From Candidatus Omnitrophota bacterium (GTDB lineage: Bacteria > Omnitrophota > Gorgyraeia > B26-G9): a stretch of 64,000 nucleotides of DNA. The translations under genes and the position numbers were made by a program. Each line of letters opens with the position of its first letter. Position 1 is the first letter of the stretch. The stretch lies in the NCBI GenBank assembly GCA_043814605.1, contig JBDRJV010000035.1, positions 10,275 through 74,274 of the forward strand, written 5' to 3'. Under the pieces are notes generated by a model. It was given only the letters and a program-made list of their open reading frames with translations, was not told where the DNA came from and searched no databases. Below, piece after piece: positions 4,160 to 63,166 of the stretch.

Positions 4160-4274
4160 CTACAATTTGTTTGTTTTCTGCCAAACTACTTGGTAGATCC
4201 GCTATGTTTTTTGGCGGAGACATTTATTTGGTATTTGCTTATTTGGCATTTGTCATTCCGATAATATTATCGGG

Positions 4275-9951: not shown

Positions 9952-10001
9952 TAAGTAGCGAGTAGTACCCTTACGGGCACAAGCGAGTAGCAAGTAGCGA
10001 G
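9952..10001. repeat. Heptad-repeat intergenic element, copy 1 of the 45-bp variant
   Basis: AGTAGCG/AGTAGTA/AGCGAGT/AGCAAGT 7-bp units flank the near-palindrome gtacccttacgggcac. It is nearly identical to 36533-36582. Confidence 0.7.
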
Positions 10002-10041
10002 AAAAATATTTTTACTTTATGCTAATCGCTAAGCGCTATCT

Positions 10042-17860: not shown

Positions 17861-17952
17861 GTTCAGGTCTCAGGTTACAAGTTACAGGTTTTAAGCCACA
17901 GGCATGTACTAATTCTTCTACTTGCTACTTGCTACTTACTGCCTGATGCTTG
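17861..17952. repeat. Heptad-repeat intergenic element with inverted arms
   Basis: Left arm CAGGTTA CAAGTTA CAGGTTT TAAGCCA CAGGCAT. Right arm CTTGCTA CTTGCTA CTTACTG CCTGATG CTTGTTA CTTATTG CTTGTTA. The arms are imperfect reverse complements of each other. It fills the whole gap between two rSAM genes. Confidence 0.7.
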
Positions 17953-23416: not shown

Positions 23417-23458
23417 CTCCTCATTATTTGTGTAATATTTAATGTATAAAGTGTGATG

Positions 23459-23712
23459 TAAAAATCAAATAAAAAAAGCATACATTGAGAAATCATATGT
23501 GATTTTGTTTAATTTATGGATGGAGATGAAGACCCGCCTAGTCATCTTCAGAGTAGCCTCACTGTGGTGGCGAGGCTGGCACGATGTCGCAACGCCATAA
23601 ACCAAGGATGGTTTTTTGGCAGCGAAGTCTTCAAACATAAATTATTACAAAATAAATATTATTTCTTAGGATGTGTTTTTATTTGATTTCCAAAGATCTA
23701 TCATTATTTTAT
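23459..23712 (+). repeat. Roughly 250-bp structured intergenic repeat, copy 1 (candidate sRNA, cis-regulatory RNA or mini-ORF element)
   Basis: About 88% identical to 26787-27047. It contains the hairpin tgaagatga-agacccgcctag-tcatcttca, the stem gcctc/gaggc and the closing gaagac/gtcttc, plus a conserved small ORF. Confidence 0.8.
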
Positions 23713-23786
23713 TGCGTTATTACTGCTGCAACAAATTTAAATTATAAGTGCAAAAAACTTATTTTTTCTAATCGCTAACCGCTATA

Positions 23787-26261: not shown

Positions 26262-26307
26262 AATCTTCTCGATAATTTTTAACTACTTTAACAAATTATT
26301 ACAAAAT

Positions 26308-26765: not shown

Positions 26766-26786
26766 TATTTCCCTTTTAAGCTTGCT

Positions 26787-27047
26787 TAAAAATCAAACAA
26801 AAAAAAGCAGCCATTAAGAAATTATGTGTGATTTTGTTTAATTTATGTATGAAGATGAAGACCCGCCTAGTCATCTTCAGAGTAGCCTCACTGTGTTGGC
26901 GAGGCTGGCACGACGTCGTAACGCCGTAAACCAAGGATGGTTTTTCGGTGGCGAAGTCTTCTATACATAAATTATTACAAAATGAACATTAGTTTCTTAG
27001 AATGCGTTTTTGTTTGATTTTCAAAGATCATTTATCACATTAACATA
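26787..27047 (+). repeat. Roughly 250-bp structured intergenic repeat, copy 2
   Basis: Direct repeat of 23459-23712 in the same orientation. It lies immediately upstream of the minus-strand small membrane protein gene and downstream of the HI0933-family gene. Confidence 0.8.
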
Positions 27048-27052
27048 TATTT

Positions 27053-35546: not shown

Positions 35547-35600
35547 TAAGTCTCAGGTTACAGGTAACAGGCTACAGGCTGCAAGTTGCAAGCTACAAGC
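35547..35600. repeat. Heptad-repeat intergenic element (single arm)
   Basis: CTCAGG TTACAGG TAACAGG CTACAGG CTGCAAG TTGCAAG CTACAAG, seven consecutive 7-bp units NNNCARG. Confidence 0.65.
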
Positions 35601-35645
35601 TAAAAACTGCATATTACATGATCCCTATGCCACCTGCCACATTTT

Positions 35646-36532: not shown

Positions 36533-36582
36533 AGTAACGGGTAGTACCCTTAAGGGCACAAGCGAGTAGTAAGTAGTAAGTA
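36533..36582. repeat. Heptad-repeat intergenic element, copy 2 of the 45-bp variant
   Basis: gtagtacccttaagggcacaagcgagtagtaagtagtaag, with a perfect 10-bp palindrome cccttaaggg. It matches 9961-10001. Confidence 0.7.
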
Positions 36583-52730: not shown

Positions 52731-52772
52731 AATTTTTAAAGCTCCAAGCTACATGCGGCAAGTTACAGATTT

Positions 52773-57679: not shown

Positions 57680-58201
57680 TTAAAATTCCTTACGTGATAG
57701 ATTATTGCGAATATGGTTAAATATTGCAATATATTCGCCGGTTGCGTAATCCGGGTATGTCCAGTCCCAGGCGGTAAAAGTCTTACCGCGAAAACGCAGC
57801 GTAACTTCTGCAAAGATACCTTTATCCAGGTACAGCCGATGCTGGTGGTCTTTAGTTGTGGCCAGGACCAGTTTAGAAAGAGTTAAATACCCGGGATCAA
57901 TATTGATCCGGCGTTTTTTATTTTTTCCCGCGAAAATATTTTCTAGCTTATTCGAATATAGCTTTATTTTCGCTAGATCCCTAACACAAATCTCACGTTT
58001 AAAGCTTAAAAATTTTCTTTTTAATCCTGTTCCCATTTCCGGCTCATAGTAATCTGTGAAATTAAAATCAATAATTTTGCTTTCAAAATCAAGCTCTCCA
58101 AACTTTTTGATTAATTTTTTAATCACCGGAATGAATAATTTTACCGGCCCAATCAAGCCGATAATTAATTTTACTTTGGGGTGTTTACAAGGAATACCCA
58201 T
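57680..58201 (-). CDS. Hypothetical protein (probable start ATG 58199-58201)
   Basis: Open frame. The track start at 58231 is a TTG inside the heptad repeat. MGIPCKHPKVKLIIGLIG is the first ATG-initiated N-terminus. Confidence 0.4.
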   Translation of the reverse strand: MGIPCKHPKVKLIIGLIGPVKLFIPVIKKLIKKFGELDFESKIIDFNFTDYYEPEMGTGLKRKFLSFKREICVRDLAKIKLYSNKLENIFAGKNKKRRINIDPGYLTLSKLVLATTKDHQHRLYLDKGIFAEVTLRFRGKTFTAWDWTYPDYATGEYIAIFNHIRNNLSRKEF

Positions 58202-58207
58202 ATTTTT

Positions 58208-58527
58208 TAGGTTGCAGGTTGCAAGCCGCAAGTATTATTTCATATGTAGTGTCTCAATGTAAAGTTTACAAATAACGGCTAAGGTTGAACGGTTACGATG
58301 TCCGCCGGAGAAGCAGCGAGACCTCGATATGCATTGTAGCGGGCCCGTATCGTCAATCGGTTACGGTGACGTATTTTTAATGCTTTGCACACGTTGCCGT
58401 TGTAAGTTGCCGAAACAGGCTTCGTTACCTTCACTTTTTACCAAATAATATAAATTTGAAAATACACCCTTGAGATTATACATTTCATGTTCTGTCTGAT
58501 ACCTGTTACCTGAGACCTGACACTTGT
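58208..58527. repeat. Composite intergenic element: inverted heptad-repeat arms (58208-58232, 58495-58525) flanking a roughly 260-bp ORF-free, GC-richer core (candidate MITE-like element or ncRNA)
   Basis: Left arm TAGGTTG CAGGTTG CAAGCCG CAAG. Right arm CTGATAC CTGTTAC CTGAGAC CTGACAC TTG, the reverse complement of a CAGG/CAAG heptad array. The core has no ORF of 60 aa or more on either strand. It contains the palindrome cgggcccg and the direct repeats cggttacg (twice) and gttgccg (twice). Confidence 0.55.
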
Positions 58528-59556
58528 TTATTTTAACGTACGAAAATTTTTTTTGATCATTTGCATATTATCCTGGCCAAATCTTTCCATAAAACAATCC
58601 GCCAGAACAATCGCCGCCATTGCTTCTGCGATAACTCCGGCTGCCTCAACTGCGGAAATATCCGAACGCTGAATTGATGCCTTTACTGTTTTTTTTGTTT
58701 TAAGATCTATTGTGGACAAAGGATTACCTAAAGTGGCAATCGGCTTCATCGCACAGCGGGCAATAATCGCTTCGGAATTACTCATGCCGCCTTCAATGCC
58801 GCCGGCATTATTTGTTTTCCGGTAGAACCCTTTTGTTTTTGAATATAAAATTTCATCATGTACTTGTGAGCCGAATTTATCCGCAACTTTAAATCCCAGC
58901 CCGAATTCAACCCCTTTTATTGCCGGAATAGACATTAACACTGCGGCAAGACGGGCATCCAAGCGCCGGTCATAATGCACATAAGAACCCAATCCCACTG
59001 GTACATTTTCCGCTTTTACTTCAAACACACCGCCTAAACTATCTTTACGTGATCTGGCTAAATCAATTTTTTGCTTTATTTTTTTTGTGTTTTTTTCCGC
59101 GCCCACACTAATAACTCTGCTGGATAAGCTAATTCCAAATTCTCTTAAAAACAATTTGCACAAAGCTCCGGCCGCGACGCGGACAACTGTTTCCCGCGCG
59201 GATGCGCGTTCTAAAACACAGCGCATATCCGAAAATCCATATTTTATCGCCCCGCTTAAATCCGCATGCCCCGGACGCGGTTGGCTGATAGGATCCAGCT
59301 GATTGATTTTAAAATCTTTGTTTTTAATTAGTAACGCCACGGGAGAACCAATTGTTTGAGCCCCTTTTATCCCGGATAAAATTTTTACTTTATCTTTTTC
59401 AATCTGCATTCTCACGCCGCGGCCATAACCCTGCTGGCGGCGGGCCAGCTCACAATTTATAAAATCAATATCTAAACCTAATCCTGCGGGAAGTCCTTCA
59501 ATAATCGCAACCATACATTCCCCGTGTGATTCTCCTGCACTCATAAATTTTAGCAT
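58528..59556 (-). CDS. aroC: Chorismate synthase
   Basis: MSAGESHGECMVAIIEGLPAGL N-terminal signature and the GR.SARETV motif. Confidence 0.9.
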   Translation of the reverse strand: MLKFMSAGESHGECMVAIIEGLPAGLGLDIDFINCELARRQQGYGRGVRMQIEKDKVKILSGIKGAQTIGSPVALLIKNKDFKINQLDPISQPRPGHADLSGAIKYGFSDMRCVLERASARETVVRVAAGALCKLFLREFGISLSSRVISVGAEKNTKKIKQKIDLARSRKDSLGGVFEVKAENVPVGLGSYVHYDRRLDARLAAVLMSIPAIKGVEFGLGFKVADKFGSQVHDEILYSKTKGFYRKTNNAGGIEGGMSNSEAIIARCAMKPIATLGNPLSTIDLKTKKTVKASIQRSDISAVEAAGVIAEAMAAIVLADCFMERFGQDNMQMIKKNFRTLK

Positions 59557-63069: not shown

Positions 63070-63166
63070 GTTTTCACCATACCTTTTTAAAAACTCTAAA
63101 CATCAAATTCTAAACCCTAAATAAACTACAGAATTTTCTTTAAGAAAATTTTTGGCCTTTGGTCTG

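Follow-up and report, generated by a model that had tools for sequence, protein, structure and literature searches.

A 326-bp spacer with inverted heptad arrays between aroC and a DUF4416 gene of Candidatus Omnitrophota, possibly a small lineage-specific insertion element

What occupies the 326 bp between the chorismate synthase gene aroC and a DUF4416 gene in a genome of Candidatus Omnitrophota? Both genes lie in a 64,000-nucleotide stretch of one contig, which was analysed as a whole and is referred to here as the window. An initial annotation had proposed that their spacer is either a miniature inverted-repeat transposable element (MITE) or an undescribed non-coding RNA (ncRNA). The reading that we prefer, tentatively and at slightly under an even chance, is that the spacer is a lineage-specific, non-coding, multi-copy insertion that resembles a MITE or a REPIN (a doublet of repetitive extragenic palindromic, or REP, sequences) and is bounded by inverted repeats built of heptad arrays.

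The two genes and the parts of the spacer are as follows:
58528–59556, minus strand: aroC, chorismate synthase (Pfam PF01264, E 1.6e-110; identical to NCBI MFH1460355.1)
57680–58201, minus strand: DUF4416 gene, directly downstream of the element (Pfam PF14385, E 2.9e-57; NCBI MFH1460354.1)
58202–58527, strand not assigned: the whole spacer, read as an insertion element (arms plus core), 326 bp
58496–58526, minus strand: distal arm of CARGTNN heptads, CAAGTGT CAGGTCT CAGGTAA CAGGTAT CAG (TRF at period 7, heptad run finder, lag-7 scan)
58209–58235, plus strand: proximal arm of CARGTNN heptads, AGGTTGC AGGTTGC AAGCCGC AAGTAT (TRF at period 7, heptad run finder)
58236–58495, strand not assigned: core, 260 bp, non-coding, found only in this genome

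The window has a G+C content of 35%, and all 50 of its 50 long open reading frames (ORFs) are on the minus strand. Its aroC product, MFH1460355.1, is encoded on an 85,788-bp Omnitrophota contig. The spacer runs from the aroC stop at 58528 to the DUF4416 ATG at 58201. NCBI annotates no gene within it, and the accessions of the two flanking proteins are consecutive. At 326 bp it is the fourth longest of the 49 intergenic gaps in the window (median 64 bp), in agreement with the initial annotation, which had called it unusually long and its interior free of ORFs of 60 aa or more; the longest ORFs in the spacer have 51 and 40 aa. The same annotation had placed the element upstream of aroC. Since aroC is on the minus strand, the element is instead downstream (3′) of aroC and upstream (5′) of the DUF4416 gene.

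Both ends of the spacer are inverted heptad arrays, as had been described. The distal arm, read on the minus strand from 58526, begins 2 nt past the aroC stop codon. The proximal arm, at the DUF4416 end, reads CAGGTTG CAGGTTG CAAGCCG CAAG on the plus strand in the CARGTNN register and appears on the minus strand as the NNACYUG units ACUUGCG GCUUGCA ACCUGCA ACCUAAA. It stops a few nucleotides short of the DUF4416 ATG, before which no Shine-Dalgarno motif was found. The two arms are mutually inverted, and their best predicted duplex has an energy of −20.8 kcal/mol, versus −10.0±2.9 kcal/mol for shuffled arms (z = −3.8). Only the 5-nt cores of the heptads pair between the arms. The arms are best read, at the same tentative level as the insertion itself, as behaving like imperfect terminal inverted repeats. 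Of the earlier proposal that the ends act as terminal inverted repeats, the inversion is upheld and the arms are complementary beyond chance, but the arrays are generic and also stand alone at other gene boundaries (see below).

The closest public aroC genes belong to metagenome-assembled genomes (MAGs) of Candidatus Omnitrophota, with identities of 72–78%. Among close relatives (L001–L003 and L201–L204; aroC 76–78% identical; the compared loci carry L numbers), the aroC-DUF4416 spacer measures 3–19 bp. Unrelated inserts of about 100–250 bp are found at this junction in L004–L007, and a cysteine-rich ORF of 230 aa, for which no Pfam match is recorded, is inserted there in two further loci (L205:3535-4227 and L206:3165-3857). 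Judged from these sequences, the 326 bp was inserted in this lineage, at a junction where insertions are tolerated, since the nearest relatives have only 3–19 bp and others have unrelated inserts. Presence and absence therefore vary at orthologous sites among the relatives compared, as is expected of a MITE. The best explanation, again as part of the tentative reading, is that aroC and the DUF4416 gene form an ancestrally tight operon junction.

Two features of this junction are noted for their own sake. An inverted repeat and a GC-rich core are also present in the L005 insert (L005:4102-4220). Sequences about 79% identical to that core occur elsewhere in two further Omnitrophota contigs (L007:828-946 and L201:131-248). 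The core carries a GACAAGGATGTC hairpin on the strand opposite the genes, and no Rfam match was obtained at E ≤ 0.01; the insert has the appearance of a dispersed element or of a family of ncRNAs. In the window itself, a terminator-like hairpin followed by a T-run (58179–58199, plus strand) lies opposite the genes and overlaps the first DUF4416 codons. It is probably a chance occurrence, because it is conserved in neither L004 nor L005.

A second copy of the core was detected through a peptide. An exhaustive phmmer search of 1.84 billion representatives with the 51-aa core ORF as query (inclusion at E ≤ 0.001) returned P0122, a 64-aa protein (E 3.7e-7), and five long repetitive proteins that were judged spurious. 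P0122 is NCBI MFH1460306.1 (locus tag ABIG64_08090, “hypothetical protein”), from the same Omnitrophota MAG and contig. Accession numbers rise with the window coordinate, from one ending in 310 for the gene at 272–754 to those ending in 354 and 355 for the DUF4416 gene and aroC; P0122 therefore lies four genes before the start of the window, about 60 kb from the spacer. Two segments of the spacer match it:
58357–58434, minus strand: matches P0122 residues 1–26 (phmmer E 3.7e-7; tblastn, 88% identity); includes CGGCAAC twice and the first CGTAACCG repeat
58214–58324, minus strand: matches P0122 residues 24–56 (tblastn) in a different frame with an internal stop; runs into the proximal heptad arm

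Because the frame changes between the two matching halves and a stop intervenes, it is the DNA rather than a protein that is homologous, and the lack of an NCBI gene call between aroC and the DUF4416 gene is consistent with this. The copies agree at about 88% over roughly 190 nt. As seen through the peptide, copy 2 lacks approximately 58325–58356, the GC-rich hairpin holding CGGGCCCG, and also the −10 hexamer of a promoter-like match, whose −35 hexamer is retained together with both CGTAACCG and both CGGCAAC repeats. Copy 2 then runs into heptads (CTTCAACCTGCAGCCTGC). On these alignments, MFH1460306.1 is most likely a spurious ORF over a non-coding repeat.

Within the core, four features were delineated:
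58290–58300, plus strand: direct repeat CGGTTACGATG, with its partner at 58358–58368; the minus strand reads CAUCGUAACCG; copy 2 retains it as HRNR, present twice in the peptide
58358–58368, plus strand: direct repeat CGGTTACGGTG, partner of the repeat at 58290–58300
58325–58356 (approximate), strand not assigned: GC-rich hairpin segment of this copy only, holding the palindrome CGGGCCCG at 58340–58347; it corresponds to a gap and frame shift between the two P0122 tblastn segments
58234–58263, minus strand: sigma-70-like promoter match directed toward the DUF4416 gene (TTTACA, 18 nt, AATAAT, with TG), from a consensus scan only

The short motifs that had been singled out earlier are all present, namely CGGGCCCG at 58340–58347, CGGTTACG at 58290 and 58358, GTTGCCG at 58393 and 58406, and GAAGCAGC at 58310. 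The G+C content is 50% in the centre (58270–58420) and 40% over the interior (58233–58489), compared to 43% in aroC and 36% in the DUF4416 gene. Thus, the claim that the core is GC-richer than its flanking genes holds for the centre but not for the interior as a whole. The spacer is also strongly asymmetric in the motif GYAAC, with eight occurrences on the minus strand and none on the plus strand. No other part of the window exceeds four, and the average over the window is 0.4 per 326 nt. A faint periodicity is seen in the core at lag 7 (z 2.4), lag 14 (z 2.9) and also lag 13 (all within z 2.4–2.9). Sigma-70-like matches in the spacer region are no commoner than in shuffled sequences, and no terminator was found on the gene strand of this region.

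Searches for known RNA and protein families in the spacer were negative. Rfam gave no match at the gathering score over the whole window and none in the spacer at E ≤ 10 other than chance-level snoRNA, SprD and 7SK matches. ARAGORN found neither tRNA nor tmRNA, and no tRNA or Rfam-recognisable RNA is present anywhere in the 64 kb, in line with the earlier observation that no tRNA signature fits the spacer. Compared with shuffled sequences, the fold z of the whole spacer is −1.10 on the plus strand and −1.87 on the minus strand, and six 150-nt sub-windows range from −1.41 to +0.75 over both strands. A six-frame Pfam scan of the core gave no match. BLAST and nhmmer searches of the core against 206 loci (relatives and metagenomes), plasmids and phages found no core homologue, and matched the arms only. 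Within the window, blastn and nhmmer found no second copy of the core beyond the arms and the element itself. The further copies that the initial annotation had suggested looking for are thus absent from the 64 kb, while phmmer found one diverged copy on the same contig.

Heptad arrays of the same type also occur elsewhere in the window. Six runs of CARG heptads were found, all at gene boundaries, versus none in 30 shuffles. The window also has six stretches with lag-7 periodicity, all intergenic; the other lags from 4 to 12 give zero or one stretch each. No CARG arrays were found in 136 kb around aroC in the relatives. The arrays outside the spacer are:
17861–17952: two inverted arrays back to back, filling the whole 92-bp spacer between two radical-SAM/B12-binding genes
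35548–35604: heptad array ending 5 nt before the start of a Kdo-transferase gene, which follows a tyrosine recombinase (XerC/D-like) gene
52731–52772: heptad array ending just before a start codon
258–285: heptad array spanning a stop codon

Arrays in the window always read CARGTNN away from the adjacent gene end. In the sense of the genes, NNACYUG units are placed directly before starts and CARGUNN units directly after stops. Arrays end a few nucleotides before the starts at 58201, 35542, 17860 and 52730. Three of these four heptad-preceded genes lack a motif resembling a Shine-Dalgarno site, which is present in 25 of the 50 genes overall.

Heptad stretches with other units (AGCGNTT, TACTTAC, CAAATNN, GTTTAGA and GAAGGTT) were also seen, at 9994–10041, 23760–23786, 36540–36582, 4225–4257, 63070–63166 and 26262–26300. 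These stand directly after stops or before starts, and heptad arrays of other units are found in other Omnitrophota loci as well.

CARGT arrays extend well beyond this genome. When metagenome contigs were scanned with four CARGT units, at least 120 loci were identified, and the listed contigs range in G+C from 0.33 to 0.71. Pairs in the listed loci consist of a CARGT array, a spacer of 2–593 nt and an inverted array. Among the 160 arrays listed, 45 have an inverted partner on their 3′ side and two have one on their 5′ side. The arrays in the listed loci adjoin starts 48 times and stops 48 times, versus 24–25 in an opposite-orientation control, and both arms share the unit tail in 13 of 30 listed pairs, where three would be expected. 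The arms are not specific to the element, since the same arrays are found at other boundaries of the window, alone or as core-less hairpins, and in many bacteria. The long spacers between arms hold PF05635/TIGR02436 genes (L182 and L106), more heptads, terminator hairpins or AT-rich DNA; in L176 and L193 they are filled by long pure heptad arrays. No DNA similarity was found among the inter-arm spacers of different metagenome loci. Genes of the PF05635 family lie between or beside the arrays in 5 of the 120 listed metagenome loci, in none of the 86 other loci, and nowhere in the window:
L182:1455-1956 and L106:97-836: PF05635/TIGR02436 four-helix-bundle genes (“23S rRNA intervening sequence”) between CARGT arrays
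L084:4218-4626, L147:6051-6447 and L090:1052-1520: PF05635/TIGR02436 genes beside arrays

These results bear unevenly on the proposal of a MITE. The spacer is small (326 bp, within the limit of about 600 bp for such elements) and non-coding, with a reading frame that is not kept between copies; its ends are inverted, it is absent from the junction in relatives, and a diverged second copy sits on the contig at a distance of about 60 kb. Inward-facing arrays of fixed polarity are also what would be expected of element termini. Several points weigh against an insertion element. A target-site duplication was looked for at ...CATATTTTTT| and |TTATTTTAACG, and none was convincing; the right flank is the aroC stop region. 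No cognate transposase or RAYT (REP-associated tyrosine transposase) gene was seen, and none adjoins any array in the 64-kb window, which also has no further copy. The arms are generic arrays that also stand alone, and they differ in their two variable bases; since these bases mismatch and the full-length fold z is weak (−1.1 and −1.9), a functional stem between the arms is only predicted. The one further copy is known through a peptide alone, with its flanks and distal arm unseen, and the pair could have arisen as paralogous regulatory regions instead of by transposition. Additionally, the dissimilar spacers of the metagenome loci fit arrays that mark boundaries as well as they fit the ends of mobile cargo.

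If the spacer is such an insertion, its arms may pair on a read-through aroC mRNA through 5-bp helices broken by 2×2 loops. With the 260-nt core looped out by this stem, only a few nucleotides would separate the aroC stop from the DUF4416 start. A Shine-Dalgarno site would be replaced by the arm that precedes the ATG, and the element would then probably modulate the processing or the Shine-Dalgarno-independent translation of DUF4416. The arms themselves are members of a much wider class of intergenic heptamer arrays that abut stops and starts, usually in pairs, in this genome and in many unrelated bacteria.

The same evidence can be read in other ways. The spacer could be a regulatory region that evolved in place, with arrays serving as binding sites or as unstructured leaders for translation control, a core consisting of a promoter and operator-like repeats (CAYCGTAACCG twice and CGGCAAC twice) for the DUF4416 operon, and copy 2 as a related control region of another operon. 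This account, operator-like repeats included, would fit the position of the proximal array a few nucleotides before an ATG that has no Shine-Dalgarno motif, the promoter-like site at 58263–58234, the one-stranded excess of GYAAC (eight versus none; at most four elsewhere) and the preservation of the repeats in copy 2. Literature parallels also exist, among them a proposal of translation control by TAACTGA repeats (PMC4679880; bioRxiv 10.1101/2022.06.06.494920). We nevertheless regard it as unlikely. Relatives run the same operon with a junction of 3–19 bp and no such region, the promoter matches are no commoner than in shuffles, and the −10 hexamer is missing from copy 2; moreover, the listed arrays adjoin stops as often as starts (48 each), whereas a start-specific role predicts otherwise. 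A structured ncRNA (a small RNA or a cis-acting one) with two paralogues in the genome and the arms as its closing stem is less plausible still, and we consider it very unlikely. It draws on the 50% G+C of the centre, on the capacity of the 5′ and 3′ ends to pair, and on the segment absent from copy 2, a nearly self-contained hairpin like the variable stems of RNA families. None of this is matched by Rfam, either at the gathering score or at E ≤ 10, or by the folding results (z between −1.9 and +0.75 on either strand, for the full spacer as for its six sub-windows), and a terminator on the gene strand and a homologue in the 206 loci of relatives and metagenomes are both lacking. Conservation at orthologous junctions, whose absence the initial annotation had itself counted against an RNA, was not seen in the relatives. 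The reading of the spacer as an undescribed structured ncRNA is not supported.

Non-functional debris, either a decayed long heptad array or a fossil insertion at a tolerant junction, would account for the core periodicity at lags 7, 13 and 14 (z 2.4–2.9), for the one-stranded repeats of GYAAC, a heptad-derived motif, and for the variability of the junction in relatives, and long pure arrays do fill such spacers in L176 and L193. The periodicity signal is marginal, however, and the likeness of the two copies (about 88% over about 190 nt) indicates a recent common origin of a specific sequence rather than independent decay, so that debris seems quite unlikely. A small protein encoded in the core, by the 51-aa or the 40-aa ORF and by the 64-aa MFH1460306.1 in copy 2, is suggested by the presence of these ORFs and by the NCBI annotation of copy 2 as a hypothetical protein. 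It is nearly refuted by the matches of the P0122 halves in different frames with a stop between them, as well as by the lack of an NCBI gene call in the window copy, of a Shine-Dalgarno motif, and of a Pfam match in any frame. Besides P0122, only spurious-looking long repetitive proteins were found among the 1.84 billion representatives (E ≤ 0.001).

The preferred reading, an insertion resembling a MITE or REPIN, combines intergenic heptamer repeats and MITE-like elements, and both of these are known kinds. Arrays of the heptamer TAACTGA are found directly upstream of starts, with few ribosome-binding sites, in Beggiatoaceae, cyanobacteria and Bacteroidetes (MacGregor 2015, PMC4679880), and only one inverted repeat was noted among 170 sets in a Beggiatoa genome (PMC4679880). 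Heptamer repeats near start codons are also described in Nostoc (bioRxiv 10.1101/2022.06.06.494920). The arrays of the window share with these repeats the short, slightly degenerate tandem 7-nt units, the nearly exclusive intergenic location and the lineage-specific abundance. Forward arrays end a few nucleotides before starts, where ribosome-binding sites are often missing, and reverse arrays occasionally stand just past a stop codon. At least three tandem 7-nt units are repeated at many intergenic sites here (six arrays, with 7 as the only enriched lag), and four starts are preceded by an array at a few nucleotides, usually without a ribosome-binding site. In contrast to the TAACTGA and TTTTGAA units, the unit here is CARGTNN (CAGGTNN or CAAGTNN; NNACYTG in gene sense), and neither TAACTGA nor a named unit of the cyanobacterial type occurs. 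Inward-facing inverted pairs are common both here and in the metagenome loci, unlike in the TAACTGA repeats, and the pair studied here encloses a specific 260-bp core that is itself repeated, in an Omnitrophota host. A literature search found no paper that links Omnitrophota with such repeats or that describes inverted pairs of CARGT heptads.

The short tandemly repeated repetitive (STRR) heptanucleotides of cyanobacteria, reportedly described by Mazel et al. in 1990, are similar in forming tandem arrays dispersed in intergenic DNA with units that differ by lineage; their unit sequences and phylum differ from those seen here. To our knowledge, STRRs have not been described as terminal inverted arrays bounding inserted cores. 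REPINs, reportedly defined by Bertels and Rainey in 2011, are paired inverted REP sequences mobilised by RAYT transposases. The element resembles MITEs and REPINs in its small size, intergenic position and lack of coding sequence, in a spacer that is enclosed by inverted arms and can fold as a hairpin, in having more than one copy per genome, and in its variable presence between relatives. It differs from them in that its arms consist of tandem heptads, not of one unique palindrome, in the lack of a visible target-site duplication and transposase or RAYT, and in having two known copies. A third comparison is offered by the intervening sequences (IVS) of 23S rRNA, in which a four-helix-bundle ORF (PF05635/TIGR02436) lies between inverted repeats that form a stem. 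Like these, the element is bounded by inverted repeats with a predicted long stem in the transcript (modelled at −20.8 kcal/mol), and CARGT heptad arms flank a PF05635 gene in the metagenome loci L182 and L106. Unlike these, the window element lies outside any rRNA gene, and none of its frames retains a trace of PF05635.

Taken further, heptad-armed cassettes might constitute an undescribed class of insertion elements, with CARGTNN arrays of inward polarity as terminal inverted repeats, fuller forms bearing a PF05635 four-helix-bundle gene (Avd-like, rRNA-IVS-type), and ORF-less forms, the present element among them, that would be non-autonomous. Their insertion at operon junctions or in rRNA would be tolerated through an RNase III-type arm stem that joins the upstream stop to the downstream start. 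We consider this generalization a long shot. Three aspects nonetheless appear to be undescribed, namely the inverted, polar architecture of CARGT arrays, the occasional PF05635 cargo, and the copying of a heptad-bounded core within one genome.

An unrelated repeat was also noted in the window. Its two intergenic copies (23417–23786 and 26766–27052; about 240 nt, 90% identical, GC-cored) lie upstream of a PEMT/ICMT-like methyltransferase gene and a 111-aa ORF. The interval 26815–26998 (plus strand) gives a sub-threshold match to the TwoAYGGAY RNA of Rfam (RF01731; 30.3 bits versus a gathering score of 43, E 0.006), with the hairpin loop AAGGAU.

Other origins of the core were tried and rejected. 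Plasmids and phages gave no blastn match. A decayed PF05635 gene left no signal in Pfam (six frames, E ≤ 10) or in tblastn with the L182 and L106 proteins, and tblastn with the 230-aa gene of the L205/L206 junction returned only noise. Remnants of the genes that lie 3′ of aroC in relatives were not detected by blastn or tblastx against 80 aroC loci. Neither the window repeat at 23417–23786 and 26766–27052 nor the L005 insert could be aligned to the core.

Intergenic heptamer repeats have been noted for decades in cyanobacteria, Beggiatoaceae and Bacteroidetes, and their function and origin are not agreed upon. CARGTNN is one heptamer type that spans metagenome contigs with a G+C of 0.33–0.71. 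Its arrays point strictly inward, frame the DNA between stop and start codons and, in at least one genome, bound a specific non-coding core that has been copied. These observations lead to a testable hypothesis, in which the arrays would be the ends of a mobile or RNA-processed cassette that sometimes carries a gene of the 23S rRNA IVS type. For annotation, MFH1460306.1 can be flagged as a likely spurious ORF, and GC-rich intergenic islands in the AT-rich genomes of uncultured bacteria need not be RNA genes.

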